From NCBI GenBank assembly GCA_019058275.1, contig JAHLVW010000058.1, forward strand, positions 1 to 64,000: a stretch of DNA of 64,000 nt, in the 5' to 3' direction. Position numbers and translations under genes: made by a program. This document shows positions 44,448 to 63,999 of the stretch, piece by piece (the first letter of the stretch is position 1; every line of letters begins with the position of its first letter). The notes beneath the pieces are model-generated. The model worked only from the letters and a program-made list of their open reading frames with translations. It searched no databases and was not told the origin of the DNA. This DNA is from Candidatus Heimdallarchaeota archaeon. Its GTDB lineage: Archaea > Asgardarchaeota > Heimdallarchaeia > JABLTI01.

Positions 44448-44589
44448 TAATGAATCCACCTTGTAAAATCGCAAAGATATTATTGCCAAACTTATTTTGA
44501 AGTAAACTTAACTAGTTATATATTTTACTCTAATAAATTAAATTAAAGTGGAAAATAGCTTAAAGAATAAAAAAAATGAAAAAAGAAAA

Positions 44590-45147: not shown

Positions 45148-45167
45148 ATCTATTCACATCTTTAATT

Positions 45168-46319
45168 TTACTTTACAAATAACTCATCCTCTTTTACCAG
45201 GTATTCTGCAACCTCTGGTCGCATGTATTCTACTAATCCATCAAGTTCTTTATTCATGATCATTTGACGGATTTTTTTACCACTGATAAACTTTTGATAC
45301 TTTGTTCCATCATGGGGGCAAGTATTGTCATTGACCACTCCAGTACATTTCTCACAGATAAAGAATGATCGGAAACATATAGGTTCTATATCTAAATCTG
45401 GGAAATTCTCAAAGATTTTATGGGCATCAAAAGGTCCATAGTAATCGCCAACACCTGCATGATCTCTTCCAACAATGAAATGACTACAACCAAAATTCTT
45501 ACGCATAATTGAGTGGAAAATAGCTTCTTTTGGTCCACCGTATCTCATTCTTGTTCTTAGAATAGCCATTGTTGATTTATCGCTTCTATAATAATGCTTC
45601 ATTAAAACATTATATGCTCCTAAAATTACTGGATCTAAGAAATCATCCTTCTTTTTCTTACCAATAATTGGATTTACAAATAATCCATCAACAAGAGTTA
45701 ATGCTGTCTTCTGTATATATTCATGACCTAAATGTGGAACATTTCTTGTTTGGAAACCAACTACAGTTTTCCATCCCATTTCCTTAAATATTTGTCTAGT
45801 TTCACTTGGATATTTTGTGAACTCTTTGTATTGTTTAACAGCAGTATTAACGAGATCAATTTTTCCCGCAAAGAGTTTCTCATTAGAACTCATAACTTTT
45901 GCTACTCCGGGATGTTCGTTATCTAATGTTTGAAAAATCCTTTCAGCAATTGTCTTCTTCTTGTAGTGGTAAATTTGATCTAAATGTAGTACTCCAATTA
46001 CTTGGTCATCGTTAATTAGAGCTATTTCATCACCTATGGAGTACTTCTTAGCAGTTTCAGATGAAACATCAAATGTAATAGGTATTGTCCAAGGTAAATC
46101 ATTTGCAAGTCTATCATTTTTAATGATAGATTCAACATCTTCTTCTCCCATGAAACCTTCTAATGGACTAAAAACTCCATGAGAAATATTGAAGAGATCT
46201 TCAACAACCTCATTGTTTACTTTTAGTTGAGCCATTTCTTGATATTCATTCAAGATTTTTTCTTTCTTATTATCAGGGAGAACTCTATTGATTAGTTTAC
46301 CACCATGTGGTTTAATCAT
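45168..46319 (-). CDS. sat: Sulfate adenylyltransferase (ATP sulfurylase)
   Basis: PHGGKL, FSPLEGFM, FQTRNVPHLGHE, MRYGGPKEA, RKNFGCSHFIVGRDHAG. Confidence 0.95.
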   Translation of the reverse strand: MIKPHGGKLINRVLPDNKKEKILNEYQEMAQLKVNNEVVEDLFNISHGVFSPLEGFMGEEDVESIIKNDRLANDLPWTIPITFDVSSETAKKYSIGDEIALINDDQVIGVLHLDQIYHYKKKTIAERIFQTLDNEHPGVAKVMSSNEKLFAGKIDLVNTAVKQYKEFTKYPSETRQIFKEMGWKTVVGFQTRNVPHLGHEYIQKTALTLVDGLFVNPIIGKKKKDDFLDPVILGAYNVLMKHYYRSDKSTMAILRTRMRYGGPKEAIFHSIMRKNFGCSHFIVGRDHAGVGDYYGPFDAHKIFENFPDLDIEPICFRSFFICEKCTGVVNDNTCPHDGTKYQKFISGKKIRQMIMNKELDGLVEYMRPEVAEYLVKEDELFVK

Positions 46320-46960: not shown

Positions 46961-49168
46961 TTAACACATGCTTTCACAAATTTCATTCAATCCTTGTAAG
47001 AATGAACTTTGTGGATAATTCGCAACAATAAAGTTGAATTCTTTTCTAATTGACTGTAATTTTATTGGTTGTTTGTAAATTCTGGATATAATCATTGCCC
47101 ATAAAAGACCAAGTGCTGCTTTCTCCTCTATCTGCTGATTATTTCTATATGTTTTGGAGAAATCAATTAACTTATCAATAATCTTACTTCCTGCTTTAAA
47201 ATTATCTAATGCTAAGTCTATTATAACGAAATTAAGTCCTTCAACATATTTGATTTGTATATTAACATTAAAGGAGTGTACTTTGGCAAATTCCCTTAAG
47301 ATCTCTAACAATTCAAGTTTTTTAAATGGATTCTTAGCTGAATATGATAAAATACCTTCATTAAATGCTCGTGCAATTCTAAGAGAAATTTTATCATCCT
47401 CTAAACTCATACGATTTGCTTTCTCGAGCTCATTCGTTATCTCAATAAGTAATTCCTTCTCACCAGTTCGTCCTAAATAGCTAATTAGTCTTATAAGATT
47501 ATCAACAAAATTATACTGTTTGTAATATTTGGTAAGGAACTTAACTCCTCTGTGATTCAGAAGATCGAATAAAATACTAGTTGCTTCACCATCTAGTCTT
47601 GCAGCACGTAGTGTAACAGCACGTACTAATGGATCTACTAATTCCAAAATCATTCTCCTCTCACAAAGACCTTCAATATGATTTACCAATTCTCCAGGAG
47701 TAACTTTAAGTAATGGAGAATTAAATCCAAACATTCCAACAGCAAAAATAAGTGCTTTTGTATATAACAGTTGATTAACAAGAAATCTATTGTCATCAAA
47801 TTCTAACTGCTTCAGAAATAGTAATTGCTTAACAATTTTGTTCTCTCGAATAGCTGGTTTTGTTAGATCATCATCTTTGGATGTCATATCTTGAAGTTCA
47901 TCAACAGTTTTTCTATCAGTAGGGATTTGACCTGTTTCTCTCAAATGATCCTTCAATTCATCATCAAATTCTATTATAGCATCTAACTCCTCAACCAATT
48001 CAATTGGTTCAATTCTATTAGGTGATTGCTTCGAAATTTCTTCAGCTATTTTGCTAATGTCTTCAAGATCATTTAAGTCATAAGCTAAGACAATTCCTCT
48101 TCTACCAATCTTTAAAGAATCATATTCTTCAATACGCATATTCTTTATTATTGCAAGTAGTTTTGCTTCAGCTAATTGGTAAGTTTCATTTTTATCTCTC
48201 TCTTCTTTCAACTTTTCAATTAAAGGTAACTTGAGAAAATAACCCCACAGTTTAAATTGATCAAAAGCATAACTTAATCGATAAATATCTTTGAAAAATT
48301 CCTTACCCTCTTTCCTTAGAAGATATTCTGAATCTTCAATGATTTCTTTAATACCATTAATACATTCTTCACAGGTATCTTCAAGTTTACTATTAACTCG
48401 AGCCAATCCAATTATAGCATTTATAGCTCCTTCTTGTAAAATCTCATTAAGTTCAACACCAAATATTAAACTTGATGAATGGCAATCGTCTTTCACTTCA
48501 TCTTGATAATGACTAATTGAAAAACTGCTAAGTTCTTTGTAAATTCGTAAGAGAGTATTACAGTCTTGTTCATCAAGATAAAAAAGTGTATTCATAAACA
48601 CTTTTGCATCAAGAAGTTGTATAGCATTAACTAATGGATAAATCGCTGATTTTTCTTGCATTATATCAAGAATATCTAAAATTTCTTTATCTGATCCCCA
48701 CTTGATTAGTTCAACAGCTGCTGTCGATATAGCAGAATAAATAATTTTGTTTTCTGGAAATCTAGCAATTATATCAATGAAATCACTAAATAGCTCTATC
48801 CTATCCTTACCTCTTGTAGCTCTACTATCAATTAATAATTTTGAAATTCCTCTAGATAAAACATAAAACGTTTCACTGAGTTCTTTTGCCCACCAAGCTA
48901 CTTCTACAAGTTGATTAAGTATAATTCTTTCAGAATTTGAGTCTCCCTTTTGACTGAATAATTCCATTAATAAATACAACATTTCTGCAAATTCAGTTGT
49001 CTTTTTTTGATCTTTCTTTAAATCAAGCTTACTTCGGATTATTCTAACAGCTGAAAAAATCTCTTCTTTAGATAAGGATTGATACCTCTTTTTTAGTAGC
49101 TTCAACTCATTATGCATATATTGTGCACCAAGATTTAACAATAAATTCTCAATATTATTATTCACCAA
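46961..49168 (-). CDS. Hypothetical alpha-solenoid (ARM/TPR-like) protein
   Basis: 735 aa, amphipathic helices, recurring ~40-aa units (FPENKII, YPLVNAIQLLDAK, HSFNVNIQIKYVEGL, YRNNQQIEEKAALGL). Confidence 0.65.
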   Translation of the reverse strand: MVNNNIENLLLNLGAQYMHNELKLLKKRYQSLSKEEIFSAVRIIRSKLDLKKDQKKTTEFAEMLYLLMELFSQKGDSNSERIILNQLVEVAWWAKELSETFYVLSRGISKLLIDSRATRGKDRIELFSDFIDIIARFPENKIIYSAISTAAVELIKWGSDKEILDILDIMQEKSAIYPLVNAIQLLDAKVFMNTLFYLDEQDCNTLLRIYKELSSFSISHYQDEVKDDCHSSSLIFGVELNEILQEGAINAIIGLARVNSKLEDTCEECINGIKEIIEDSEYLLRKEGKEFFKDIYRLSYAFDQFKLWGYFLKLPLIEKLKEERDKNETYQLAEAKLLAIIKNMRIEEYDSLKIGRRGIVLAYDLNDLEDISKIAEEISKQSPNRIEPIELVEELDAIIEFDDELKDHLRETGQIPTDRKTVDELQDMTSKDDDLTKPAIRENKIVKQLLFLKQLEFDDNRFLVNQLLYTKALIFAVGMFGFNSPLLKVTPGELVNHIEGLCERRMILELVDPLVRAVTLRAARLDGEATSILFDLLNHRGVKFLTKYYKQYNFVDNLIRLISYLGRTGEKELLIEITNELEKANRMSLEDDKISLRIARAFNEGILSYSAKNPFKKLELLEILREFAKVHSFNVNIQIKYVEGLNFVIIDLALDNFKAGSKIIDKLIDFSKTYRNNQQIEEKAALGLLWAMIISRIYKQPIKLQSIRKEFNFIVANYPQSSFLQGLNEICESMC

Positions 49169-49271: not shown

Positions 49272-50155
49272 TTATTTATCTGGCATTGTGATAACTGTCA
49301 ATGCTTTGTGAAGGCATTTGAACTCTTAAGGGTATTCACTATACATTTCTCCCATAAAGTGTATTGGGCGAGTTTTATCTCCAACGTTTTCTAAAACAAC
49401 TTTCTTACCATTGAATTGTTCAACTTTTTTGTGTTTAATGTGAGTACCTTTCTTCAAACGACTTAGGATATTTAATTTCTCAAAGAAATTAACATTACCT
49501 ACAAGTGAGATGTCAAGCAAACCATCATCAAAAATTGCATCTGGACATAAGATCATTTTATTTCCAGCACAAATTCCTTCCCAATGGCTACATCAAGAGC
49601 ATTAGCATCATGAACTATCTTACCATCATCAATTGTTAATTTCATAGGATGTGGTTTTTAAGTATTTATATTCTTCACTAAATTGTACATATATGCTCCT
49701 GGTGATTTTTGACCTAAACTTGCTTCAGGAACAGCCTCACTAATTCCTGCACCAACTATCCCTATAACATATCTCACCCCTTTGTTTACTTCGATACAAT
49801 CGATTTTTCTTTGTTGCTTTGTTAGAAGCATATCAACCATATCGTCAAGATTGTTTGAAATCTGCAAAGTAAAAGCATCATCGTTGCCACGACTAGCTGG
49901 TAAAATACAAAGAGTATTTTTAAAACCCGTTTGACCAATTCCAGTTAACACTTCATTAACGGTTCCATCACCACCATAAGCACAGATAATTTTGTGATCC
50001 TTGTAAGACTCTTTCACAATTCTAGTGGCATCATTAACATCTTTAGTCCATTCAACTTCAAAATCAAGTCCTGCTTCTTTAAAAGCAGTAACAAATTTGG
50101 GCCAATTTTTAAGACTATTACCAGCATAAGTTGTAGGATTACCAATAATTTTCAC
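49272..50155 (-). pseudogene. Diacylglycerol/lipid kinase family (YegS/BmrU-like), disrupted
   Basis: NP, YGGDGTVNEV, LPASRGND and PDA.FDDGLLD motifs. In-frame TAA at 49658 (NT*KPHP), a 1-nt deletion near 49580 (VAIG-N-GICAG), and a second in-frame TAA at 49326 (YP*EFKCLHKALTV). Confidence 0.85.
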
Positions 50156-50381
50156 TGAACTATCACCTGTTAAATACCTTATACTGCAAGAACAACATTC
50201 ATTTTAAATCTAGCAGTAAAGAATTGTAATTTTTTTCAAAAAGATCTGATTTTTTTTTAATTTTTTGCCACAACCATTTAGTTTTAATAGCAAAAAGATA
50301 GTAAAAAAGAGGAAGAGAAAATAAAGAGCGAGGTTTTTTTTGAAACCTAATCTTTACTTGGCTTAAGAAGGGACCAAGTCA

Positions 50382-53300
50382 ATGAGCATTCTACTGAAAA
50401 TTCACGATATGAGGTTAATAAAACTAATACTACCAATATACCTTATGGTAATAGCCATACTTATACCCATCTCTCTTAAATCATTATTAACATCAACAAG
50501 TGGACATTCAAGCAATGCTGTTCCAATAGCATTATTCTCATTATGGAATGATACCGCACCTACAATTGATGGTCAAATCGTTTTTAATTCAAGTTCACTT
50601 TCCACTGAATGGTCTGCAGCAGCTGTTTATTATCTGGTTGATAAGGTTAATAGTCCAGATTCCAAATTACTCCTTCAAAATAATGATGCAAATTTCTTTG
50701 TTGGACTGGATGCCACATCCCAGCTTAGTGATCCAGTAACTACTTGGGGTTTTGGAGTATATCTTGATAGAGATCATAATGGCATTTTAACTAGTTTTGA
50801 TAGAGCAATATTCTTGAATGATTCTGGTTCAGGTGAAATTGTAAGTTACAATTACTATAGTCAGACGATTAAAAATTGGATTGAGATAGATTCAGGACCT
50901 GTTGGAATAGCTTTCACATCTGGTATTTTAGTATCTACTGCATATACTGACTCCTTTTTTGAATCTAACAATCATCGTCAATATGAAGTAAGAATTCCTT
51001 TTACAGAGATTAATGTTCAATCAGGTGAAGTTACTGGAATGGCTTTTGAGATATTTCAAGATTTTGAGAATAATGATGATGAAATCACTTGGCCTTATAT
51101 TAGTTCCACACCGAGTGAATTACGAACAAATGCTGGACTATGGGGTGATATTCATTTTGGATTAAACACAAGCTTGAGCTATTACTATTCTAAATACTCT
51201 GTTGAAGAAAATACAAACATAAAATCTAGTGCTGTTGGATATAATAATGGTACATTTATTACTACTGGTGATATTAATGGTGATGGGGATCAAGAACTCA
51301 TTGTAAGCTCAAATCGTACCGTTGCTGGTGACAGCAATCTCTTAGCAATATACGATCATGCAGATGGTGGATTAATTCGCAATTGGACTTCATGGACAAC
51401 TAGTCACCAATCAAAAATGTTTCTAGTAAGAAGTATTGCAACCCACGATTTTGATGGTAATGATGAAGATGAAATCTTTCTAAGTGGAGAAGACAGTCGT
51501 ATCTTAAGATTATCTTCATGGAATGCTGGAAACAATGATTTTGATAGTTCTGATTATGCATTTTCTCATACGAGTGGTTTAACCGGTTATTTGGCTATTG
51601 GAGACATCAATAATGATGGTACCGCTGAACTAGTTTTCGGTGATCAGAATGGGTATGTAAATGCTCTTAAATATAACTCACTAACAAACAGTTTTAGACA
51701 TGATAAAAGATCACCTTTCACAGTAGCTGGTTTAAAGAAAATACATAGTATCACTTTGGGTGATATGGATGATGATGGTGAAACTGAAGTACTATTTCAA
51801 GGGCAAACCGATAGTCTAATACCTGAAACAAAGCTTTACATATATTTGCGATTCTTTTCTAAATTCCTTGATAATCCAGAAGATAATCTGCCATCAGATT
51901 CTGCTCCATCTACTGCTGATAGATTTGGTCATACTATTCTTGTTGAAGATGTCGATAATGATGGTATTACAGAGATTGTTACTGTGGGTCAAAATTATCT
52001 GAAAATTTTTGGGAAAGATACTTTCTTAGCAGCATTTCCTCCTTTGGAAATACAAATCAATGATGGCCTACAAGATCCAAAAATGGGAGGTGGAGCAGCA
52101 GTTGCAGATCTTAATGGTGATTCATTAAATGAGCTTATTTTTAGTTTTAATAATGGTACAATTATGGTTTTGAATATAACAGATAGCGGTAGTGATAATT
52201 TATCCTATGACATAGAATGGTCTGCTGATTATGGGTCTTCCTTTGGAAAAAGAAACTCGCTAAAAGTATTAGATATCGACAATGACAATGAAAATGAAAC
52301 AATAACTGGTGATGTATTCGGTCAAATATTGATTCTAGGTAAATCTTCTCCACCTGATATTACCATCACTTCACCAACAACTGGTTCGATTTTTTCATCC
52401 TCACCTATTGAAGTTGCATGGGATGCAACTGATGATTTAGCAATACATCATTATGACATATCAGTTGGAGAGGTTTTCAATGTAAGAATACCTGGATCAC
52501 AAACAAGCTTTATGATTCCTATTTCAGCAGCTGATAATCTCATAAAAGTAAATGCATTTGATGTAAATGGGAAAAATACCTCTGATAGTGTAATTGCTAA
52601 GTATAATGTATTGTCACCTCAAATAGATATTTCTAGTCCTGAAAATTATCTAATGACAGCAAATGATACTATAACTGTATTGTTTACAAATTCTAATCCA
52701 AATGGTGATTTTGATCATTATGAAATATATGTTAATGGTTTCAAAGAAGAAGATTACTGGATATTTAATTTCTATGTTGCTTCTCTACCTTCTGATGGTA
52801 TTTATAATATTACTATTGTAGGAATAGATTATTTGAGTAATGAAGGAAAAAGTTCTATTTTCATTACCAGAGATAGAACATCACCGAATATCGCTATAAC
52901 CTCACCTATATCTGGATCATATGTTAAAAGTGATGAAATCGATATACAATGGAGTGCTTCTGATTCTCTTAGTGGAATATCTCATTTTAATTTATATCTC
53001 GATAATGAATATTTACTCACCACAACAAATCAATTTCAAACAATCTTTCTTGATCGGGAAAAAACATATCAAATTAATGTTGAAGCATTTGATTTAGTTG
53101 GCAATTCCCAGTTCCATAATATTACTGTTAAGAAAGACTCAATACAGCCAAAGATAACAATTCTTTATCCTGAATCTGGATTCATTTCATCATCTAATCA
53201 GATAAATTTGGCTTGGGAAACAATAGATAATCTAGATGGTTCTGGGATACATCACTCTGAAGTAGTTGTTAACCATGTAACAAAATATACAGGAACTGAT

Positions 53301-55898
53301 GATTCAATTCTATTAGATCTTGTAGATGATGGGTTTAAAGATATTCTTGTAACTAGTTATGATAGAGCTGGTAATAGCAAAACAATCTATCTTTCTGTAA
53401 TTGTTGATCAAACTGATCCATTTGTCAAAATTATTAGCCCCGAAGATAATTTTGAAACTGGATTAACTTATGCAATCATAAGTTGGGAAAGTCAAGATAA
53501 TGGAACAGGCATAAACAAACATGAAATCTATGTTGATGGCGTTTTAACTGAAACAATAACTGATCCTACAATTGATTATTATCAAGTTGATTTATCCTTG
53601 GATAGCACTTCAATTATAACAGTTCAAGCACTTGATTATCTAAATAGAACATCTTCAGACAGTGTATCCATTATTCAAAATTCAACCTTACCAACAATTA
53701 ACATTATTGATCCAGCGAATCCTATGTCATATTATTCTACTGCCTCATTTGATATTTCTTGGGATATTGCAAATATTCCAAATCTAAATGGGTTTGAAAT
53801 TTTAAGAAACGGAACAAGTATGTATAATATAACAAACCTAAGTGATCGTAGTTATACAATTGATTTAGGTGAAATTCCATTAGACCAATATCATCTTCAC
53901 AATTTAACAATAATCGCAAATACAACAAATCCAGATGTTAAATTCTATGATTATTGTTGGATAATGATTGATCAGACAAAGCCAGTCATAACAATAACAA
54001 CTCCTGAAAATTATACTATGGTAATCCACCAAGGTTTGTATATACAATGGACAAGTTCTGATTTTGGATCTGGATTAAAAAACATCAAAATGAAAGTTAA
54101 TGGAGAATACTTGGTAATATGTTTCTGTTCAAGAAATGATTATTATCTTATTTTTAATGTTGGAGATGGATTATATACAATTGAAATTGAAGCATTTGAT
54201 TTTGCTAATAATATGAAAAGTAGTTTACTATATCTTGATGTTTACTTATTGCTTCCTGACTTTACAACTGATTTACCAAATACTTACTATACACAAACTG
54301 GAATTTTTCAGTTTGAGCTATTAATCAATAACCCTCAAACCGGCGTAAAAAGAATACAAGTAAAATTAGACAATAATGAGGTTTATACACGATATCATTA
54401 TGAAACATTAATAATAACCCAATTTTCAGTGCTCATAAATATTACAGATAGTCATTACAATGGTTTATTAAATGAACATACAATGATTATTGGTATTTTA
54501 GATTCATTCAATCGAGAATCTTTGCTAACCTATACAATAATTATTGATAATGAACCACCAGAACTACTTGGTTCTATAAGCATTGACTCTCAATCAATAA
54601 CTTCGAATTCTCATGAGCTACAACTTTATGAAGATTCAGCTCAAAATAATCATTCATTTTCCATAACTTTTACAGACAATTATGCAGTTCAAAGAGTAAC
54701 CATAACAATTGTTGGAGTAGATTATAACAAAACATTTGAAATGATTCCTAATCCAACAACTAGGTTGGATATTGTAACATTTAGCATTACAATCAATTTT
54801 GGTAATTTGATAGAAGAAAATTATGAGGTAATATTTACTGCCTATGATTTTGCTGGAAATAAGCAAAATATAACACTAAATTTAACAATATTACCAGAGG
54901 AGAAAACTCCTTGGCTATTCCAAGGGAATAATCTGATTTACTTTATAGTCAGTGGTATTTTTGTCATTGTTCTCTCTTTAGTTTGGACTGTAGGACTTAG
55001 AAAACCTTTGCTCAACAGAAATTGGCAAGACAATGTTATTGCTGTAATTTATGTTCGTAATACAGGTTTAACTTGTGTTTATGCACCATATTATCCAGAC
55101 ATAATACAAGAAGAGCAACTGTTTGGAGGAGCTATGATAGCTATTCAAAGCTTATTAGATGAGATTTCTGTTGAAGAAAAGAAGAGAACGAGATTAGAGA
55201 CTTTAGAAATAGGTGATAAAACACTTCTCATTGCATCTGGAATCTATGGTTTTGGTGCCTTGTTAACAAAGAAAGTCAAACCAAAACATAAGAATTCTGT
55301 GAAATCATTTACCAAGAAATTTGAATCAATCTATAAACGTCCTTTAGAAAGCTCATATTATGTTTCTTCAACTGAATTTACTGGATCGTTGAAATTAGTT
55401 GAACAATATTTTGGTTCATTGGATAATGGTGAGAGGGTTATTGCTGAAGAGGGATTAAGTCAACAATTAATTGAATTAAAAGAGAAGCGAGAAAAAGAAC
55501 CTAACATATTGATTGATATTGAAACAACAAACAAATACGTACTAAAGAAAATAACTCCAATTGATGATTTATTGAGTAAAATTTCAAGAGAAGCAAAGAA
55601 TCGGTTATTAAAAGTAATAGAAAATACTCCAAAAGTCATAATTGGCCTTGTAGAAAATAATTTTGATCAAACAGAAATAACTTTACAAGAAATAACTAAT
55701 GATCTAGAATTTTTACTACGAATTGAAAGATCAAACAAAGATTTTGATTACTTTATTAGAACAATGATCAACTTAACCCTGAATATCAGTTCGGGAATAG
55801 AAAATGGACGATCAGATAATGTGGCAGAGCTTCAAAATGCCATTGAATCTGCAAGTAAAATCTGGTTTGATGAAATAGTTGAGAAATGGTCGGCATAA
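50382..55898 (+). CDS. Giant type-I membrane receptor-like protein A: CBM9/DOMON-like + 7 FG-GAP + 9 Ig-like + TM + longin-like + helical tail
   Basis: APTIDG/RQYEVRIP domain; GDINGDG, HDFDGND, GDINNDG, GDMDDDG, EDVDNDG, ADLNGDS and LDIDNDN loops; P.I.I.SP...W...D..GN repeats; TM near 54930-55000; EEQLFGGAMIAI. Confidence 0.85.
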   Translation: MSILLKIHDMRLIKLILPIYLMVIAILIPISLKSLLTSTSGHSSNAVPIALFSLWNDTAPTIDGQIVFNSSSLSTEWSAAAVYYLVDKVNSPDSKLLLQNNDANFFVGLDATSQLSDPVTTWGFGVYLDRDHNGILTSFDRAIFLNDSGSGEIVSYNYYSQTIKNWIEIDSGPVGIAFTSGILVSTAYTDSFFESNNHRQYEVRIPFTEINVQSGEVTGMAFEIFQDFENNDDEITWPYISSTPSELRTNAGLWGDIHFGLNTSLSYYYSKYSVEENTNIKSSAVGYNNGTFITTGDINGDGDQELIVSSNRTVAGDSNLLAIYDHADGGLIRNWTSWTTSHQSKMFLVRSIATHDFDGNDEDEIFLSGEDSRILRLSSWNAGNNDFDSSDYAFSHTSGLTGYLAIGDINNDGTAELVFGDQNGYVNALKYNSLTNSFRHDKRSPFTVAGLKKIHSITLGDMDDDGETEVLFQGQTDSLIPETKLYIYLRFFSKFLDNPEDNLPSDSAPSTADRFGHTILVEDVDNDGITEIVTVGQNYLKIFGKDTFLAAFPPLEIQINDGLQDPKMGGGAAVADLNGDSLNELIFSFNNGTIMVLNITDSGSDNLSYDIEWSADYGSSFGKRNSLKVLDIDNDNENETITGDVFGQILILGKSSPPDITITSPTTGSIFSSSPIEVAWDATDDLAIHHYDISVGEVFNVRIPGSQTSFMIPISAADNLIKVNAFDVNGKNTSDSVIAKYNVLSPQIDISSPENYLMTANDTITVLFTNSNPNGDFDHYEIYVNGFKEEDYWIFNFYVASLPSDGIYNITIVGIDYLSNEGKSSIFITRDRTSPNIAITSPISGSYVKSDEIDIQWSASDSLSGISHFNLYLDNEYLLTTTNQFQTIFLDREKTYQINVEAFDLVGNSQFHNITVKKDSIQPKITILYPESGFISSSNQINLAWETIDNLDGSGIHHSEVVVNHVTKYTGTDDSILLDLVDDGFKDILVTSYDRAGNSKTIYLSVIVDQTDPFVKIISPEDNFETGLTYAIISWESQDNGTGINKHEIYVDGVLTETITDPTIDYYQVDLSLDSTSIITVQALDYLNRTSSDSVSIIQNSTLPTINIIDPANPMSYYSTASFDISWDIANIPNLNGFEILRNGTSMYNITNLSDRSYTIDLGEIPLDQYHLHNLTIIANTTNPDVKFYDYCWIMIDQTKPVITITTPENYTMVIHQGLYIQWTSSDFGSGLKNIKMKVNGEYLVICFCSRNDYYLIFNVGDGLYTIEIEAFDFANNMKSSLLYLDVYLLLPDFTTDLPNTYYTQTGIFQFELLINNPQTGVKRIQVKLDNNEVYTRYHYETLIITQFSVLINITDSHYNGLLNEHTMIIGILDSFNRESLLTYTIIIDNEPPELLGSISIDSQSITSNSHELQLYEDSAQNNHSFSITFTDNYAVQRVTITIVGVDYNKTFEMIPNPTTRLDIVTFSITINFGNLIEENYEVIFTAYDFAGNKQNITLNLTILPEEKTPWLFQGNNLIYFIVSGIFVIVLSLVWTVGLRKPLLNRNWQDNVIAVIYVRNTGLTCVYAPYYPDIIQEEQLFGGAMIAIQSLLDEISVEEKKRTRLETLEIGDKTLLIASGIYGFGALLTKKVKPKHKNSVKSFTKKFESIYKRPLESSYYVSSTEFTGSLKLVEQYFGSLDNGERVIAEEGLSQQLIELKEKREKEPNILIDIETTNKYVLKKITPIDDLLSKISREAKNRLLKVIENTPKVIIGLVENNFDQTEITLQEITNDLEFLLRIERSNKDFDYFIRTMINLTLNISSGIENGRSDNVAELQNAIESASKIWFDEIVEKWSA

Positions 55899-55948
55899 AA
55901 TAGAAATTTTAATTTTTTAAAAAATTAGAAAAGAGAAAGAATATTTGT

Positions 55949-58900
55949 TTAATATTCTTCATTTCTATATTCATTGTTTGCATTTTCTTCATAGTTTTCT
56001 TGGTAATAACTTACAGCAATATCTTGATTTGTTTGATGTGAAGTGTCATGTTCTGGTGTACTATAGTCTTGTGTATCTATTGTATTTAGCAATTGATCAG
56101 TTTGTCGTTGAAATATGTTCTTTCTAAAACCAAAAATACTTTCTACTAGTAATGGCGCACTTGAATATTCATTCAAATCAATGAGCTCTTGTGTTAAACT
56201 AAATTTGTAGGCTGTTTCAAAGTCATTTATGAATTGTTTTAACAATTCTTTCAGTTTTGATTTTACATCAGTAACTAATAGAATTCCATTACCAAAATAG
56301 CCAGAACAAATCATGAGTCTCTTGTCACCATATTCCATAACATGAACTTTCATTGCAACTTCAGTTTCACCAGTAATTTCACCGAGAATACTCATAATGC
56401 CAGTTAAAGCTCCACCAAAAAGCTGTTCATCTTCAAAAAGATCAGGTGAGTAAGGAACATAAGTCAATGTTAATCCTGTTTTTGTAACATAAGCAACAGC
56501 TACTATAGCGTCTTCCCATCCTCTATTCAATCTTTTTTTGCGTGTAGTAACTGAGAGTATTGCAGAAAGTAAAATTATAAATAGAATTCCGCCAGTACTT
56601 GGAATAACTATTGTAAATAGATTTTCTCTTAACCATTTACTGCCACCAATTGGAGGTGAAGTCGGAGGTCCATCTGAGCTTATTGTAATATTGAAGGAAT
56701 AACTACTTGAAATCGAATTCCCAGCAACATCTACTGCATCAAATTTAAATTCATAAACTCCTGCTGCGAAAATGTTGAAGTCAATTGTTACTTCAAAAAC
56801 AAATATATCACCTATTGATTGACCTTTGTTAAGAATCATATTATATTGAAATGTTGTTGTATCATTAGTAATATTAAGAGAAACTGAACCAACACCATTT
56901 GTATCTCTTGTTGTTATGCTTATATCATATACATTCTCATCATATACATCAGTAATTTCGAGAATATTCAAGTCCAAACTAATTCGTGTATCACCTAATA
57001 TTGGTCTATCAAAAATAGTAGGTGCTACATAATCAATTACTATGTCGACAAAAATATTACTCCATCGACTAGCTTGATCATAAACAGTAATTGTTAAATT
57101 GTGATCATCAATTTCTATAAGAAAATCATCATCTGTTATAGCAAATAGATAGGAATCTGGATCATACTGAATATCTCCTTCAAAATTAAGAGCGTCAACG
57201 ATAATAATATTATCAGCAATAATTTGAATTAATTCTACACCATATCCTACATTTGTTACTTGCACGTTGATTGGGAAATTGGGATCATTTGTTATTACAA
57301 ATGAAGGAAGATCAACATTGAATTCAGGTGGATTGGGATAAAATTCAACTATAATTGAAGAATTATCACAATTTCCTGCATAGTCAAATGCTGAGAGAGT
57401 TATATTATAGTATCCTTCCTCATATGATGATATATCTAATGTTGTATCAACAGAACTGCTTCCATAGTATTGGATCAATCTATTATTGATGTAGAGTATA
57501 TATTGATCAATTCCAGAACCAGTATCAAAACCAGACCATGAAATATAAAGCGAATCTTCAGGAATTTCATCATTGTTTTCAGGTGTAAGAATTGAAACTA
57601 GTGGTGAGGATTGATCAATAGTTACAAATCTCGATAATACCCAAGTATAAATTCCTCCATTATTTACTGCAATTGTAATATTTACTTCTGGAAAACTATC
57701 TTCAGGTATAATACCAATTATTGTAGTTACATCAACTAAATCAGAAAATGTTGTATTTGGATAACTATTATAATGAATTCCATCAACAAAGATTTCGAAA
57801 GTATCTAAGAAGATATTTGTAATTCCCCAAGAAACAAAAATTAAAGGAGAAGTTGAATAACTATAAAGGTCCTCTGGAATATTTATATAAAATGTAGGCG
57901 TATCAGCATCACGACGAACTAAAATTGTGTCCTCATCAAAATTGCCTAGGAAGTCAACTGCTTTGACAGTTATAATGTAATCTTTTTCTTCAGGAAGATC
58001 AACAAGATAGGATGATGTTGATATATCAGTGATAATTTCTACTAAAGTACCATTAACTATTATTTCATAATATTCAATTCCCGCTCCTTCATCAAATCCA
58101 TTCCATTTAACATTAACAGTATCTGAGCTAGTAACAAAATCATCTTCTGGAGATGTAATATTTACATCGGGATTTTGTGTATCATAAGCAATAATATAGA
58201 AATCAAATGCACTATTACCGGCAAAATCCCAAGCAATTATTCTTATTTCATTAGGTCCTTCAGAGCTTAGTAAGATAGTAGTATTTAGTACATCAGGTGA
58301 AAAATCGAAAGAAGTACCATCAACAATTAATTCAAATTTGTCTAATCCAGTTCCACCAACATTGTCTTCACCATACCAACTTACAAAAACAGACGAGATT
58401 GATGTGTAGTAATATCCTTCATAATTGGCTGGAAGAGATAATGAATCAAGATATGCGTAGGGAGTTCCTGTATCTCGAGTAATATAGACAATATCTTCAC
58501 TAAATTTTCCAATTGCATCATAAGCAACTACTTTCAATGAATATATATCATCTGATACCAAGGCAATATCAAGATAGGAATTTGAATATGATACTCCTAA
58601 TAATATCTCATTTCTATATACTTCACAATATTCTATCCAAGAACTGTCATCATAAGCATCCCAATAAAGATCTATAGTTGTAGATTTAATTGCTGATCCG
58701 TCTAAGGGAGATGTAATAGTAACTACAGGATTAACTGTATCTCGAATAACATAAACACTATCATTTGCTTCATTAGTTCCATCCGAAACAACAATTGTAA
58801 TTAACCATAATCCATCTGATGGTAAGTCAACATCCACATAATAATTATCAGATCCTATCGGTGTTGGGGTTACAGCTTGAAGGCTACTATTTCTGTATAC

Positions 58901-61300
58901 ATCAAAGGATAGTGTATCATCTACATCAGGATCATCTGCCCAAAATTCAACTCTAATTGAAGAAGAGTCTGTAACATAATAGTTTGTTGGTAAAGTTATA
59001 TCAATTTCTGGTGCACTAGCACTATAAACTATAGAAATATAATCAAAAGCGATTTTACTTGTAACATCAATACAGTAGATATCAATATTATTAGATCCTG
59101 CTTCTAATGGAATAATAGCACTATCTTGACTTCCTCCAGTTTTATATTCTAGAAATCCATTTAGATATATTGAGATAGAATCTATTGGTAAAGATTCATT
59201 AGAAATTTCCCACTCAAGTAAAATGTTTTGTTTATTTGATGTTCCTGAGCTTGGTGAAGTAATGGTTATTTCTGGATTTGGTCCTTCACCTATTATGAAA
59301 ATTTGACCAAAACTATCACTGATAATAGCTTCAGTTGCACCATCACCATCTATGTCATAACCTAATATTGAATTTCTTTTTCCGGGACAAGAACCTATAT
59401 CCATTCTCCATTCTTCACTTAAGGATAGATCTTCAATTAATGGATCTGAATCAGAATCAATTACTTCATAAACAATTATTGTTCCATTATTACAACCTAC
59501 GATAAGCTCTTTATCACCATCATCATCAAGATCAATTACTCCAGCTCCTCCTCCCATGTTTGGATCTGATATTCCATCATTAATAGCTATCTCTAAAGGA
59601 GGTTCTGTTTGTAAGAATGTAAATGGACCAAAGATTTTCAAATAATCACGACCTACAATTATTGTTTCATTTTCTCCATCATTATCTACGTCATCAATAA
59701 TGATTGTATGGCCATAATAATCATAAGTTAATTTGGAAGAGTTTTCAAATAAATCATCTTCATGATAACTAGCCCAAAATGTAGGATTATCATAATATGA
59801 ATCCACATCAAATTCATAAATATGTAAAGCTGTTGAACCATTAGAAGAGAACTGTGATAAAATTATCACTTCTTGCCAGCTTGATTCATTATCCATATCC
59901 CCGATTTCAACATCATGAATATAAGTTACTGGTTCAGTACCATCAACATCATCAGGTATCATAAAACCTGCATGAGCAAATTTTTTGTTAATCGTATAAT
60001 CAATGAAATGAACTCTACCTATAACATCACCAATAACTATTTGTTTTTCGCCTGTCCAGTAATTTAAACCATCACCAATATCAATATAACCTGAGAGATC
60101 AACACTATTTGAAAATACGTTTACTTGTTTTTGAAAATCACTTACAGAAGAACTCCAATCAAATAACCTAATTACTCTAGGATCATCTCCACAGATGAAT
60201 ACTTCATCTTCACCATTGCCATCAAAATCATATGTTGCAATGCCTTTTACAATAAATGGAACTGTTATATCAGCAGCAGTCCAAGAATTCCAAATCTGAG
60301 TGATCTCACCACTTACATATTTATAAATTGCTAAAAGATAATTTGCAGAACTATCCGTTTTATTTGAGCTGACAATTAATTCTAGTTCACTATCGCCGTC
60401 TATATCACCAGTAGCTAGGAAAGTTCCATAATTCTCACCAATCTGATCATCAAGGATATTAAAATTATCTTCAATAACAAATGCTTCAAAAGTGAATTCA
60501 TGGCCTAGTCTTAAATCACCCCATGAATAAGGTTTCTCTCTAAATGTAGTATCTAAGAAACTACTATCTATGAATGGCCAAGTAAAACTGCCTGAGCGAG
60601 AGACTTCTTTGTTTGTTGCTTCAAATAATACCCCTACGAGATTTTGTGGTGCTAAGTCTAATTCTGACAATCCGATTTTATATTCATATTGCCTATGAGA
60701 AACTGTCACTAGGCCTGAGCTACCAAAATAGGTATCCATAATTATATCGTAAGAGAGAAAGATAGTTCCTGGAGTACTTGTTTCTAAATCTTCCCAACTA
60801 CTAGAAATAGAATTCCAATATTGGAACTTAACTGTTTCAATTGCACCAAAGTTTCTATATACAATAGCACGATCAGATGAATCAATTATTCCATTATGAT
60901 TGAGATCCAGATAAATTGATGATCCCCATTCAGTAACTGGATCCTCTATTATATGAGCAGTAATATCTAAACCAATATAGAGATGATCATTATCATTTTG
61001 TAGCAATAATTTTGTTCTAATGTTTTGTAAATCATCGTACATATTGTAAACTGCAGCCATATTCCACTCAGTTGCTGGGTGGGTTTCATTAAAGTTGATT
61101 TGACCATCAATCAATGGAGCAGTATCATTCCATATCGAAAAGATTTCTATAGGGTCTGCAAGAGGATAATGAGCTCTTACATTGTTAATTTCAAAAGGTT
61201 GAATTGAAATGAAAATTGATGTGATAATTATAGATAATAAAAATAGCTTTATACTTTTCTTCTTAGATATACTAGAATAACTACATAAAAGCTTGGACAT
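55949..61300 (-). CDS. Giant type-I membrane receptor-like protein B, collinear paralog of A, with an acidic Tyr-rich tail
   Basis: Same domain order as A (WNDTAP.IDGQI, GDIDGD, YDFDGNG, DDVDNDG, DPNMGGGA, 9 Ig-like repeats, TM, DEQLFGGALTGI). Start placed at MSKLL (61300); the ORF is open to 61378. Confidence 0.85.
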   Translation of the reverse strand: MSKLLCSYSSISKKKSIKLFLLSIIITSIFISIQPFEINNVRAHYPLADPIEIFSIWNDTAPLIDGQINFNETHPATEWNMAAVYNMYDDLQNIRTKLLLQNDNDHLYIGLDITAHIIEDPVTEWGSSIYLDLNHNGIIDSSDRAIVYRNFGAIETVKFQYWNSISSSWEDLETSTPGTIFLSYDIIMDTYFGSSGLVTVSHRQYEYKIGLSELDLAPQNLVGVLFEATNKEVSRSGSFTWPFIDSSFLDTTFREKPYSWGDLRLGHEFTFEAFVIEDNFNILDDQIGENYGTFLATGDIDGDSELELIVSSNKTDSSANYLLAIYKYVSGEITQIWNSWTAADITVPFIVKGIATYDFDGNGEDEVFICGDDPRVIRLFDWSSSVSDFQKQVNVFSNSVDLSGYIDIGDGLNYWTGEKQIVIGDVIGRVHFIDYTINKKFAHAGFMIPDDVDGTEPVTYIHDVEIGDMDNESSWQEVIILSQFSSNGSTALHIYEFDVDSYYDNPTFWASYHEDDLFENSSKLTYDYYGHTIIIDDVDNDGENETIIVGRDYLKIFGPFTFLQTEPPLEIAINDGISDPNMGGGAGVIDLDDDGDKELIVGCNNGTIIVYEVIDSDSDPLIEDLSLSEEWRMDIGSCPGKRNSILGYDIDGDGATEAIISDSFGQIFIIGEGPNPEITITSPSSGTSNKQNILLEWEISNESLPIDSISIYLNGFLEYKTGGSQDSAIIPLEAGSNNIDIYCIDVTSKIAFDYISIVYSASAPEIDITLPTNYYVTDSSSIRVEFWADDPDVDDTLSFDVYRNSSLQAVTPTPIGSDNYYVDVDLPSDGLWLITIVVSDGTNEANDSVYVIRDTVNPVVTITSPLDGSAIKSTTIDLYWDAYDDSSWIEYCEVYRNEILLGVSYSNSYLDIALVSDDIYSLKVVAYDAIGKFSEDIVYITRDTGTPYAYLDSLSLPANYEGYYYTSISSVFVSWYGEDNVGGTGLDKFELIVDGTSFDFSPDVLNTTILLSSEGPNEIRIIAWDFAGNSAFDFYIIAYDTQNPDVNITSPEDDFVTSSDTVNVKWNGFDEGAGIEYYEIIVNGTLVEIITDISTSSYLVDLPEEKDYIITVKAVDFLGNFDEDTILVRRDADTPTFYINIPEDLYSYSTSPLIFVSWGITNIFLDTFEIFVDGIHYNSYPNTTFSDLVDVTTIIGIIPEDSFPEVNITIAVNNGGIYTWVLSRFVTIDQSSPLVSILTPENNDEIPEDSLYISWSGFDTGSGIDQYILYINNRLIQYYGSSSVDTTLDISSYEEGYYNITLSAFDYAGNCDNSSIIVEFYPNPPEFNVDLPSFVITNDPNFPINVQVTNVGYGVELIQIIADNIIIVDALNFEGDIQYDPDSYLFAITDDDFLIEIDDHNLTITVYDQASRWSNIFVDIVIDYVAPTIFDRPILGDTRISLDLNILEITDVYDENVYDISITTRDTNGVGSVSLNITNDTTTFQYNMILNKGQSIGDIFVFEVTIDFNIFAAGVYEFKFDAVDVAGNSISSSYSFNITISSDGPPTSPPIGGSKWLRENLFTIVIPSTGGILFIILLSAILSVTTRKKRLNRGWEDAIVAVAYVTKTGLTLTYVPYSPDLFEDEQLFGGALTGIMSILGEITGETEVAMKVHVMEYGDKRLMICSGYFGNGILLVTDVKSKLKELLKQFINDFETAYKFSLTQELIDLNEYSSAPLLVESIFGFRKNIFQRQTDQLLNTIDTQDYSTPEHDTSHQTNQDIAVSYYQENYEENANNEYRNEEY

Positions 61301-61437
61301 ATGGGGACTCTCATTATAAATTGATTTTAACTCAAATGAGTAAAGATATACCGACAAATACATTCTGCTTAAATTCAAATAAAAGACTTTAGATTTGGGA
61401 ATTTTTTTACAATAAATGAAAGAAAAGAAGAAAAAGA

Positions 61438-63999
61438 TTACTTTCCTAGTGCAAATCTTAATTCTTCCATTTTTTCTCTAGGTTGGTTAATCATTATAGC
61501 AAATTCCATTGATGAACTACTATTTGGTTTAGTATATTGTAAACCCAAAGCCCATTTTAGTAACATCACTCCAAGATCTGCAACAACTGAAGATCCATGA
61601 GAACCTGTTGGAACGACGAAAGAAATGGATTGATTTCCTTTTGTTATTCTACTGTAAGGTTTGTTGAAAGATCCTTGACTTATGAACTGCTTCTTAACTG
61701 AATTTCGTATCCACAAATCATCAGTTCCTTTCACTTCAATTACATTGCCTTCTTTAGAACCTTGTAAACCAATATCAGAAATTAATGAACCTATCCATGG
61801 TATGCTTCTAGAAGTTTTATTATGTAGAGTTAAAATAACTCTAATTACTTCGCTGTTTGGAATTGTCAAGTATTGTAACTCAACTTTTTGCCCAAAGAGA
61901 TACTGCTTTTCCTTCTTAATTGTCCAAATGGTTTTGACACCTTTCCACATTCCATCTTCGAAAACTACACTTTTTGTTTCTTCCATTTCTGCAAATGGAT
62001 CATCAGATACTAAATGGAAAATGGCTGGTTGTATTCCTCCTAAATAATGTTCTAGGAAGAATTTTGGTTTAACTTCAGGATAACCATCAAGTAAGAAACT
62101 CCTCTTTTTGGAATCTTCTAGCCTTATTAGATTTCCACCAATATCTGCAACTACTTTGAAGTCTAAGGCACCATTTGATACTTCAATAACCTTCTTTCCA
62201 TCGAGCATCTTTTCTTGAACTTCAACACTTCCTTTTTCAGTAACCAGAATCTGATTATCGAAATCTATTTCAAATTCTCCACTGAAATGTAAAATTATAT
62301 TTTCTATGGGTGAGTTAATTTTCTCAGGAACAACTAGCTCTATGTCAATAGGTGATGATTTAAACGGTTCCAGCTTAGGCATTTCAATCTTAGATGCTTT
62401 CTTTCCATCAACAATGAAATTTCCTTTCCAATTCTTTGGTAATTTCAAGCTTAATGATCCTTGTAGTGGGTAGGCTGAAGCAAGAGAAATTAGAAATGTC
62501 TTTTTTACTGTTTCACCAGCAGTTAGAACTGTTTTATCTGACAATTCAACTTCTAGAGCTTTTGACAATTTTGGTCCTACAGTTGATTCCATGTGGTCAA
62601 ATTCGATATTTCCTACCAATTGATTCCATCTGTTTCTAATTTCATGAATCATATTATAACCAAAACTATACCAAAGATGTACTGGTTTGTATGTTTCTCC
62701 AGGTTGAATTTCCTCAGTTTTACTTTCTAATTGTGATAAATGACCTTGACGAAGCTTTATCTTCTCTATCTTCTCTGGTTTCCATATCCATGCTGAATAA
62801 TCACCTAACATTAGACCTTCGACAGCAGTCCATGTTTCAGACCAGAATTGAGGTTCAGTAGGAAGTAACGGATCAGTTAAGAAATTTGTAAAAGTATCGC
62901 TTTCGTAAATTTTTCCACCAATAGGTGTAAATGCTTTTCCTTTAGCTGTGTATGGATTTAAACTAATACCTTGAAAACCAGTTGATGTTCTTGCTGATGC
63001 ATGGATGGATTTCTTGTCAACGTTTCTATAAGTAACCCAATATTCTATCTCATTCATTCCAGGAGAAATTTTGATATGTTTCTTAACAACTAAACCAGGA
63101 ACGTGAATGCTTTTACCAGTTAAAATGAGAGTTTTGTATCTTCCTTCCTCTATTAATTCGTACTCATGAAGAAGTGTTCTATCCAAAGAAAGCCCATAGG
63201 GAGGTCCAGTTTGATGATTAAGTGGATTAAGTCCATTATTCTCTTGTTGAAAAATACGCAGATTTCCACCTTCAAGCATCGCCCGAACAGTCAATTTATC
63301 AGTAATAAAGAAGAGCATATTTCGATCTTTGAGTTCAACTAATTCTATCAGATCATTTGTTTTAGCAAACACTGGTATATCATAAGTTGGCATTTCGATT
63401 TCATGACCATTGTATTGAATCGTAGGAGTTGTTTTTATAATGAATTTGTTTGTTTTTCGAGTTGCAGGAATTGTAATTGGGATATTTATGCCGATAATTT
63501 CCTCCGGTTTGATTTTTATTGGAATTTTTATTGAACTATCTTTAATCCCCTCAATTTCAATATGCGCAAATCCTTCAATCGTTGTTTTTGTTGTATTGAG
63601 AACATCCATTGGAATTTTAACTTCAGAACCAACAGGTGCTGTGCTAAATCGATTCTCATTAATGCTTCTTAATTTTACAGCAGATTGAATTTTACCACTT
63701 GTTGACAATTCGATGACATTATCACCAAGATTTATTTTAACAAAAATTGATTCACAAGCTCTATCATTATCCCTGAATAATTTTGCACTTTTGTCTATGA
63801 CAAATTCTCGAGATATTTGTATTGATTCGTCTTTTTTCACAATCACAGTTTTTGGGAACTCTTCTTTCCATTTCAACCCTTTGAATTCTTTAATATCCAG
63901 CTTTGCTTCAATTTCATTCTCATAATCGTTTTGCAGTGTAACTGTTAATGTGTTCGGGATACCAATAAAGATATCATGTGAAGATAATCTAGTTTTGGC
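61438..63999 (-). CDS. Large beta-rich hypothetical protein, 5' truncated by the window
   Basis: Frame is open to the window end (AKTRLSSHDIFIGIPN...). Ig-like and beta-sandwich segments; no catalytic motif seen in the visible part. Confidence 0.7.
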   Translation of the reverse strand, partial: AKTRLSSHDIFIGIPNTLTVTLQNDYENEIEAKLDIKEFKGLKWKEEFPKTVIVKKDESIQISREFVIDKSAKLFRDNDRACESIFVKINLGDNVIELSTSGKIQSAVKLRSINENRFSTAPVGSEVKIPMDVLNTTKTTIEGFAHIEIEGIKDSSIKIPIKIKPEEIIGINIPITIPATRKTNKFIIKTTPTIQYNGHEIEMPTYDIPVFAKTNDLIELVELKDRNMLFFITDKLTVRAMLEGGNLRIFQQENNGLNPLNHQTGPPYGLSLDRTLLHEYELIEEGRYKTLILTGKSIHVPGLVVKKHIKISPGMNEIEYWVTYRNVDKKSIHASARTSTGFQGISLNPYTAKGKAFTPIGGKIYESDTFTNFLTDPLLPTEPQFWSETWTAVEGLMLGDYSAWIWKPEKIEKIKLRQGHLSQLESKTEEIQPGETYKPVHLWYSFGYNMIHEIRNRWNQLVGNIEFDHMESTVGPKLSKALEVELSDKTVLTAGETVKKTFLISLASAYPLQGSLSLKLPKNWKGNFIVDGKKASKIEMPKLEPFKSSPIDIELVVPEKINSPIENIILHFSGEFEIDFDNQILVTEKGSVEVQEKMLDGKKVIEVSNGALDFKVVADIGGNLIRLEDSKKRSFLLDGYPEVKPKFFLEHYLGGIQPAIFHLVSDDPFAEMEETKSVVFEDGMWKGVKTIWTIKKEKQYLFGQKVELQYLTIPNSEVIRVILTLHNKTSRSIPWIGSLISDIGLQGSKEGNVIEVKGTDDLWIRNSVKKQFISQGSFNKPYSRITKGNQSISFVVPTGSHGSSVVADLGVMLLKWALGLQYTKPNSSSSMEFAIMINQPREKMEELRFALGK

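Follow-up and report, generated by a model that had tools for sequence, protein, structure and literature searches.

Introduction

In eukaryotes, the longin fold is found in VAMP7, Sec22b and Ykt6, in Trs23 and Bet5 of TRAPP, and in Fuzzy-Inturned and Mon1-Ccz1, and it serves there in the docking of small GTPases. Asgard archaea possess abundant longin and roadblock proteins that have undergone heavy domain shuffling, and their longins are known as soluble proteins or as fusions to GTPases (Tran et al. 2024, PMC10933270; bioRxiv 10.1101/2020.10.19.343400). FG-GAP-type beta-propellers occur in another set of proteins, namely prokaryotic FG-GAP/VCBS surface proteins, metazoan ITFG1/LINKIN, ITFG2, and BBS2, BBS7 and BBS9; LINKIN is reported to be a single-pass protein with such a propeller (PMC4275582). 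The subject here is a pair of genes, A and B, that lie tail to tail in a 64,000-nucleotide stretch of DNA from Candidatus Heimdallarchaeota archaeon (assembly GCA_019058275.1, contig JAHLVW010000058.1, positions 1 to 64,000), referred to below as the window. Each encodes a type-I receptor or adhesin with a Ca-type propeller, a long stalk and, behind a single transmembrane (TM) helix, a cytoplasmic longin domain.

A and B are thus FG-GAP/VCBS surface proteins fused to a longin-fold domain. The cytoplasmic domain of A shares its fold with the eukaryotic longins named above and is related in fold to the solved Asgard longin/roadblock proteins (PDB 8yqg, 9jue and 7f8m). Unlike known longins, it is attached to a TM helix on the cytoplasmic side, with an ectodomain of 1,500 residues ahead of that helix; it also matches no Pfam longin model above threshold. 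Similarly, the propeller is of the same type as those of the FG-GAP/VCBS, LINKIN, ITFG2 and BBS proteins, but none of these carries a cytoplasmic longin. A family-specific head and a fixed set of four paralogs are particular to the genus to which the window belongs. A limited literature search found no paper on an FG-GAP-TM-longin protein or a membrane-tethered Asgard longin, although the supplements of Liu et al. (2021) may mention one; that study is cited elsewhere (PMC9258230) for ‘integrin repeat-containing ESPs’ (eukaryotic signature proteins).

The initial annotation of the locus had called both proteins integrin-alpha-like. With integrin alpha chains they share a seven-bladed FG-GAP propeller with Ca-type loops, an immunoglobulin (Ig)-like leg, one TM helix and type-I topology. 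The propellers of integrins alpha6, alphaM and alphaL match that of A with Z scores of 25.6-26.9, tied with unrelated WD40, BBS and ITFG2 propellers, and so the likeness is generic. The stalk, moreover, is made of seven to nine bacterial Big_7 repeats (Big_7, Glucodextran_B, Big_13) and not of thigh, calf-1 and calf-2 domains. The GFFKR motif is absent; the TM helix is followed by RKPLLNRNW in A and RKKRLNRGW in B, and then by a folded longin domain of ~135 residues instead of a short tail. The possible partner of A or B is a paralog. At E <= 0.01, no match to integrin beta (PF00362) was found in the 92.8% complete genome in a search made without a positive control, and none to the integrin thigh domain (PF08441), for which control genomes were also silent. 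True membership of the integrin alpha family, three defining features of which were not found, was rejected, and the label is a generic one.

A longin-fold domain behind the membrane helix

Beyond its signal segment, each protein has one further hydrophobic helix with Arg and Lys residues behind it, in keeping with the single TM helix first described. The C-terminal part of A (residues 1515-1838) was modelled with AlphaFold2 (AF2) from 85 sequences, with a predicted local distance difference test score (pLDDT) of 88.7. In this model, a domain with the topology strand-strand-helix-strand-strand-strand-helix starts ~7 residues past the TM helix; its elements span model residues E38-45, E50-55, H64-81, E91-96, E99-105, E109-115, H120-136 and H138-142 (E, strand; H, helix). 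The corresponding domain of B shares with it the motifs LFGGA and F...FE.

The top PDB match of the model by Foldseek is the longin domain of VAMP7, which ranks first in both Foldseek-dependent and Foldseek-independent searches. VIA-align Z scores are 12.6-12.7 for VAMP7 (4afi), 12.3 for Trs23 (2j3t_D), 12.2 for Fuzzy (9rs9), 12.0 for Sec22b (1ifq) and 10.6 for Mon1, alongside 11.7-12.0 for a Prometheoarchaeum roadblock protein and 11.1-11.7 for the Lokiarchaeal longin 8yqg. The structural matches also include the Ykt6 longin and the sigma and zeta subunits of the adaptor and COPI coats.

The longin and roadblock folds are closely related, and for the domain of A it is topology alone that separates them. 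Alignments with longins (Z 11-12.7 over 114-128 residues) run to model residue 165 and take in the C-terminal helices. Those with roadblock proteins (Z 10.2-12.0) end near model residue 140 and begin at about residue 15-25 of the matched chain, which means that the N-terminal helix of the roadblock fold is skipped. From the extent of the alignments and the lack of that helix, the topology is that of a longin by the criterion of Tran et al. 2024 (PMC10933270). A Roadblock/LC7 identity (MglB, LAMTOR) is not supported: strand 1 comes directly after the TM helix and its short linker, with no roadblock-type N-terminal helix in front of it.

The basic residues behind the TM helix agree, by the positive-inside rule, with a cytoplasmic placement. 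The C-termini of 12-TM permeases of the major facilitator superfamily (MFS) are cytoplasmic, and the occurrence of the A/B type of longin domain at the end of MFS permeases with 10-12 TM helices independently places it inside the cell. Taken together, the modelled topology, the match to VAMP7 (Z 12.7), the positive-inside rule and the permease C-termini support a longin fold on the cytoplasmic side, as had been proposed at the outset.

The two proteins end differently, and here too the first description stands: A has a helical tail of 158 residues and B an acidic one of 59, with a C-terminal four-helix bundle only in A of the pair. The tail of A matches generic four-helix bundles (the PcaY ligand-binding domain and PsbQ) with Z scores of 10.9-12.0. 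These lie under the level of helical noise (~13), and no function was drawn from them.

The extracellular region

The ectodomain of A was modelled over residues 40-665 using 51 relatives (pLDDT 88.9). Behind an all-beta head, the model contains 28 strands forming seven four-stranded blades, and model residues 229-618 align with seven-bladed propellers at Z 25.5-30.2 in a Foldseek-independent search of 48,161 PDB chains, bearing out the seven-bladed propeller of the initial annotation. The matches include LGI1, BBS2, CIAO1, KICSTOR/ITFG2 and the three integrins already mentioned; the PDB entries that rank highest include BBS9, BBS2 and KICSTOR/ITFG2. In the ESM Atlas, the predicted structures and clusters that come nearest belong to FG-GAP/FG-GAP_3 (VCBS-type) proteins of bacteria and archaea. 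The Pfam models FG-GAP and FG-GAP_3 score 38.5 and 37.8 bits in A (cut-offs 22.1 and 26.9), and 18.6 and 18.2 bits, under the cut-offs, in B.

Seven loops of the D-x-[DN]-x-[DN] type are present in A, at residues 297, 356, 408, 461, 523, 576 and 631 (spacing 52-62 residues), and calcium binding is predicted from these motifs. B has five canonical loops, the third and fourth being degenerate as initially reported. This degeneration is shared across the B clade, loop 3 being lost in 8/8 members and loop 4 in 6/8; loop 3 is also frequently lost in clades A and C (the clades are described below).

Nine Ig-like repeats had been claimed for each stalk. Seven are clear, matching a self-built repeat profile at E < 1e-11 in both proteins (3e-24 to 6e-32 in A). 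The other two, proximal to the membrane, match weakly (E 0.02-0.2; residues 1292-1504 in A) and are probable only. Big_7 scores 92.6 bits in A and 70.4 bits in B (cut-off 24.1). The Pfam families above their cut-offs in A are FG-GAP, FG-GAP_3, Big_7 and Glucodextran_B, and the stalk also matches Big_13.

The signal peptides first noted were found again as N-terminal hydrophobic, signal-like segments in both proteins. In A, the hydrophobic window spans residues 12-30 (residues 17-35 of the open reading frame, ORF; mean hydropathy 2.63), and a block conserved in the family, AHS..A.P.EIFSLWNDT, begins right behind the hydrophobic segment. The head of A corresponds to residues 1-236 of the ectodomain model (m3622f7f23d4e), with pLDDT mostly 80-95. 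It had been labelled CBM9/DOMON-like, which remains unconfirmed. No Pfam family matches the first ~270 residues of A or B, a search of the genome with PF06452 gave nothing at either gene, a sequence-profile search of the PDB found no meaningful relative of the head, and a profile search of 5.8 billion proteins returned fragments of its own family only. The sole hints are sub-threshold matches to CBM9_1 in 2/38 orthologs (best E = 9e-4) and an ESM-Atlas feature score of 0.86, a weak language-model lead. The glycan sensing proposed in the initial annotation would depend on this putative CBM9-like head. Every match listed by Foldseek, VIA and the Atlas for the 626-residue ectodomain model is to the propeller.

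The longin domain in Asgard archaea

A profile built from five copies of the domain in the window genome was searched against 1.84 billion cluster representatives, of which 1189 matched at E <= 1e-3. Among the best 141 representatives, 108 have a hydrophobic or TM helix within 70 residues upstream of the domain; counted over the whole protein, 68 of these 108 have no more than two TM helices (one or two), whereas 27 have at least six. All matches named by organism are from Asgard archaea (Odin-, Loki- or Promethearchaeota), and the domain is present in 139/151 sampled genomes of the phylum, including 72/72 of high quality. The commonest sub-threshold Pfam matches among 85 domains of the family are Fuz_longin_1 (7), Intu_longin_1 (7), Sybindin (6) and Robl_LC7 (3). 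Six other large single-pass proteins bearing the same longin domain match no Pfam family.

MFS permeases make up 7/50 of the longin-family matches scanned. P0109, P0111, P0115, P0132, P0158 and P0164, from other Asgard metagenomes, are MFS-type permeases of 10-12 TM helices ending in the same cytoplasmic longin-like domain, a build reminiscent of a transporter-coupled sensor.

The window genome encodes 27 members of the family at E <= 1e-5. One protein of this genome (688 residues; contig C67, 14507-16684, equivalent to L005:1231-3294, minus strand) has neither a signal peptide nor a TM helix. It combines an FG-GAP/BBS-like propeller related to those of A and B with a CxxC...CxxC zinc ribbon and the same longin-like domain (E = 1e-29), and its C-terminal region is helical. 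Genome G008 has an ortholog (contig C71). The protein resembles a cytosolic relative of the giant receptors.

A family of giant proteins and the conserved A/B pair

About 55 full-length relatives of 1,720-1,890 residues were found, nearly all labelled Heimdallarchaeota or ‘Asgard group’. A head and propeller are present in 9/10 other genomes of the genus (GTDB species genomes) and in 0/30 other searched genomes of the class. Four copies occur in the window genome, of which C lies on contig C98 and D is split across the ends of contigs C85 and C118; the other two are A and B. In a FastTree phylogeny of 51 sequences, four old, well-supported paralog groups (A to D) and a small fifth were resolved. 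The B clade holds all eight short-tailed proteins, with tails of 6-82 residues against ~150-200 in clades A, C and D, where the helical tail is found.

Across orthologs, the propeller and longin domain are the parts with the greatest identity, and the fast-evolving stalk has the least (33-43%). Among B orthologs, the longin domain is 67% identical, the TM segment 51% and the stalk 39%. The longin domain is the best-conserved part of B, and the TM segment and longin domain of B are the most conserved among the clades.

Conservation of the pair, which the initial annotation had left to be checked, was found in five genomes of the genus (the window genome, G000, with G007, G008, G009 and G010), where A and B are convergent neighbours, and on two NCBI contigs of metagenome-assembled genomes (MAGs), L006 and L007, which may overlap the GTDB genomes. 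The tail-to-tail arrangement is kept in every genome that has both genes on one contig. On L006 the whole neighbourhood is syntenic, while L007 carries different genes on the B side. Paralogs C and D stand alone.

Two relatives contain in-frame stop codons, where a pseudogene or an assembly error is possible: a B ortholog in G010 (C7:100547-101284; TAG, open frame of 1359 residues) and a giant paralog in G004 (C361:3386-5281; TAA).

A proposed membrane-tethered docking platform

A beta-sandwich cap and a Ca2+-type propeller, raised on about nine Ig-like domains, would give the ectodomain the build of an adhesin or ligand-binding receptor. Directly behind the TM helix, the longin domain would form a membrane-tethered docking platform, where it would pair with a second longin/roadblock domain (of its own kind or of a paralog), bind a small GTPase, or do both. 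Members of the family would in this way link matter bound outside the cell to GTPase-type machinery inside it. The probability that the longin domain is such a platform is put at roughly one half; ligand binding, dimerisation, GTPase coupling and any signalling are what we infer beyond the architecture.

The proposal finds support in the best fold matches, all of them longins with roles as GTPase platforms or in trafficking, in the membrane-tethered habit of the closest relatives across Asgard archaea and in the strong conservation of the propeller and longin domain. At the level of the domain family, a link to small GTPases is also seen in the genome, and paralog C lies 4 kb from an Arf-like gene. 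The C-terminal domain of an Arf-like GTPase encoded in the window (30013-30999) matches the receptor longin profile (E = 5e-6), and 7/26 unfused members of the whole domain family in the window genome lie within 5 kb of a small-GTPase gene, compared with 1.9 expected under random placement relative to the 41 small-GTPase loci (p ~0.003).

Several points weigh against a platform. That enrichment test is rough: it assumes random placement and treats neighbours as independent, which they are not, one GTPase gene being flanked by two members. For A and B themselves, the nearest GTPase gene is 18-24 kb away and none is adjacent, nor is there any within 10 kb of the pair in the syntenic MAG contigs. 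A TM helix lies directly upstream of the domain in just 7/27 family members of the window genome (the four giants, two polytopic proteins and one doubtful case). In two more the domain precedes four TM helices, and the remainder look soluble, so that the membrane-tethered habit belongs to the closest relatives of the A/B domain and not to the whole superfamily. No Pfam model, those of longin and roadblock domains included, matches the cytoplasmic region of A or B, even at E <= 10. Furthermore, longins act in SNAREs and coat adaptors too, and the fold alone is no proof of function.

Asgard archaea encode numerous small GTPases and longin/roadblock proteins. If the platform is real, a longin held just inside the membrane by a surface receptor or transporter would tie such GTPase systems to a set location, the membrane, and supply them with a particular input, namely what is bound by the ectodomain or by the transporter. 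A few recombinant domains would then suffice to test how GTPase regulation coupled to receptors or transporters arose.

It is possible, if on balance rather doubtful, that the giants have only a structural role at the cell surface, for instance as adhesins or as components of an envelope or sheath, in which the longin domain serves for anchoring or oligomerisation with no GTPase coupling or signalling. An FG-GAP propeller on a Big_7 stalk is the standard prokaryotic adhesin build, the nearest structures are bacterial FG-GAP surface proteins, and four paralogs per genome with fast-evolving stalks are as expected of proteins exposed at the surface. The missing GTPase neighbour also fits, as does the observation that dimerisation is the typical function of longin/roadblock domains (Tran et al. 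2024, PMC10933270). However, conservation of the longin domain (67% in B orthologs) exceeds that of most of the ectodomain, and its occurrence at the ends of transporters and of many unrelated single-pass proteins is more readily explained by a general output or adaptor module in the cytoplasm than by a private anchor. The proximity of the family to GTPase genes above chance, and the one member fused to a GTPase, likewise speak for something other than an anchor. Were the domain a mere anchor, the clear account of a large family of Heimdall surface proteins, confined to one genus, would still stand.

The initial annotation had proposed that A and B form a heterodimer. An obligate heterodimer of this kind, joined through their longin and TM segments into an alpha/beta-like receptor in which B is a specialised and perhaps shared partner, is unlikely, though it would be compatible with a docking platform. 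The tail-to-tail adjacency in five genomes and two MAG contigs, one of which has different flanks, is what such a partnership would predict, and A-clade genes are always paired with B-clade genes. B is the only tail-less paralog and is single-copy in each genome; its specialisation is clade-wide and shows in the loss of the tail, in the degenerate third and fourth loops and in TM and longin segments that are better conserved than those of the other clades. Eukaryotic longin platforms are typically heterodimers of paralogs, as in Mon1-Ccz1, Fuzzy-Inturned and TRAPPC1-C4 (PMC10933270). Nevertheless, the two genes converge and are hence not transcribed together, inherited synteny may account for adjacency inside one genus (L006 is syntenic throughout the neighbourhood), C and D stand alone, and the B gene of G010 has an in-frame stop.

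A broader scheme, which must be regarded as improbable, would make the four paralogs one receptor system. Tail-less B would be the shared partner of tail-bearing A, C or D through the TM and longin segments, the resulting pair of tethered longins would bring in an Arf-, Rab- or Rag-like GTPase or switch its state, and the MFS-longin fusions would be the nutrient-sensing counterpart. If true, it would amount to a prokaryotic receptor-to-small-GTPase relay built from the Mon1-Ccz1/TRAPP/Ragulator module.

Least probable of all is a role for the longin domain as a sorting or membrane-remodelling element that governs delivery, clustering or turnover (for example at protrusions) instead of relaying a signal: although the best folds include the VAMP7, Sec22b and Ykt6 longins and the sigma and zeta subunits of the adaptor and COPI coats, and the domain also ends transporters, which are cargo-like, SNAREs follow the order N-terminal longin, SNARE motif, C-terminal anchor, which is reversed in A and B, no SNARE motif is present, and no coat or SNARE partners were identified.

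Longin-domain genes near GTPase genes

Several associations between longin-domain and GTPase genes were observed in the window genome. Three small-GTPase genes, one Ras/Rab-like and two Arf-like, occupy 28395-32008 (minus strand) of the window, ~18-24 kb from A and B. An Arf-family GTPase of 177 residues (Pfam Arf, E = 1e-37; contig C98, 36329-36862, equivalent to L009:3330-3863, plus strand) is encoded 4 kb upstream of paralog C, from which it is separated by three to four genes that are unrelated or of unknown kind. On contigs C66, C11, C79, C105 and C55, smaller longin-domain proteins are encoded 50-4,000 bp from Ras-/Arf-family GTPase genes; on C66, two such proteins of ~700 residues lie on either side of an Arf-like gene (16258-16767).

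Features of the locus and neighbouring genes

The window corresponds to contig C51 of a 4.1 Mb genome in 118 contigs (GC ~32%). A and B had been described as collinear, convergent paralogs 50 bp apart, and a BLASTP alignment agrees (36% identity over 1709 collinear columns, E = 0), as does the stop-to-stop distance of 50 nt. As a whole, the observations of the initial annotation are confirmed and its interpretation is partly supported. Features are listed in Table 1. A chance ORF or annotation artefact is ruled out by the ~55 full-length relatives and the high-confidence models.

Table 1. Features of genes A and B in the window. Residue numbers of B follow P0002, the longest ORF, in which Met27 is the likely start.
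Feature	Position	Strand	Description and basis
Gene A (P0001)	50382..55898	+	1838-aa type-I surface protein; ORF, translation, Pfam, relatives
A signal peptide / N-terminal hydrophobic segment (aa 1-40)	50382..50501	+	Hydropathy; family alignment
A head (aa 41-275)	50502..51206	+	All-beta domain of family-specific sequence; AF2 model, ~11 strands
A propeller (aa 276-657)	51207..52352	+	Seven-bladed FG-GAP/VCBS-type beta-propeller with seven Ca-type loops; loops, model, fold search
A stalk (aa 658-1290 and 1292-1515)	52353..54926	+	7 clear Big_7-type Ig-like repeats, then ~2 divergent beta-rich segments; repeat profile, Pfam
A TM helix (aa 1521-1539)	54942..54998	+	Followed by RKPLLNR; hydropathy 2.5, one long helix in model
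A longin-like domain (aa 1545-1680)	55014..55421	+	Cytoplasmic; AF2 topology, pLDDT ~90, fold searches
A helical tail (aa 1681-1838)	55422..55895	+	Linker helices and C-terminal four-helix bundle; model H222-323, pLDDT > 93
Intergenic spacer	55899..55948	.	50 nt between the A and B stop codons; palindromic AATTTTTTAAAAAATT tract
Gene B (P0002 from Met27)	55949..61300	-	1783-aa paralog of A
B tail (aa 1751-1809)	55952..56128	-	Short, acidic; translation, 59 aa
B longin-like domain (aa 1618-1750)	56129..56527	-	Cytoplasmic; 44% identical to A domain; hidden Markov model E = 2.6e-42
B TM helix (aa ~1590-1608)	56555..56611	-	Followed by RKKRLNR; hydropathy
B stalk (aa 702-1585)	56624..59275	-	Ig-like, 7 clear repeats and 2 weak; repeat profile, Pfam Big_7 and Glucodextran_B
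B propeller (aa 306-701)	59276..60463	-	Five canonical Ca-type loops; 47% identity to A propeller
B head (aa 70-305)	60464..61171	-	Collinear with A head, 37% identity
B signal peptide (aa 27-69)	61172..61300	-	Lys-rich n-region, hydrophobic core, ...NNVRA/H, then conserved head block

An alternative start of A is Met10 at 50409. The longest ORF of B spans 55949-61378 (minus strand) and reaches a TTG at 61378; the ATG at 61300, which precedes a Lys-rich and then hydrophobic signal-like segment, is the likely start. The T6/A6 palindrome of the spacer gives a T6 run on both strands, and the tract may bring about oligo-T termination of A and B of the archaeal type. No tRNA or Rfam RNA was found in the window.

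Divergently upstream of A, a lipid kinase gene of the DAGK_cat/YegS type (49326-50203, minus strand) is broken over three frames (181, 34 and 88 residues). Intact orthologs of 302-314 residues adjoin A in L006, G008 and G010, not in G009, and paralog C is followed directly by a second DAGK-type gene (L009:13454-14398). As these genomes contain 4-9 DAGK-type kinases each, adjacency by chance is possible. The next gene (46961-49168, minus strand) encodes an all-helical protein of 735 residues with no Pfam family, possibly a cytoplasmic scaffold; its identity to the syntenic L006 ortholog, 57%, is above the conservation of A. Upstream of B and in the same direction, a large gene (61438-63999, minus strand) ends ~138 nt before the ATG of B and continues to the contig end. 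It has no usable Pfam match. The gene at the same position in L006 is 44% identical to it, and L007 lacks it at that position.

Further away, genes for ATP sulfurylase, adenosine 5'-phosphosulfate (APS) kinase and a sulfotransferase stand side by side (43296-46319, minus strand), forming a set that makes and uses 3'-phosphoadenosine 5'-phosphosulfate (PAPS). Speculatively, this set could sulfate surface glycans or lipids. Two of its genes, sat and cysC, are syntenic in L006.

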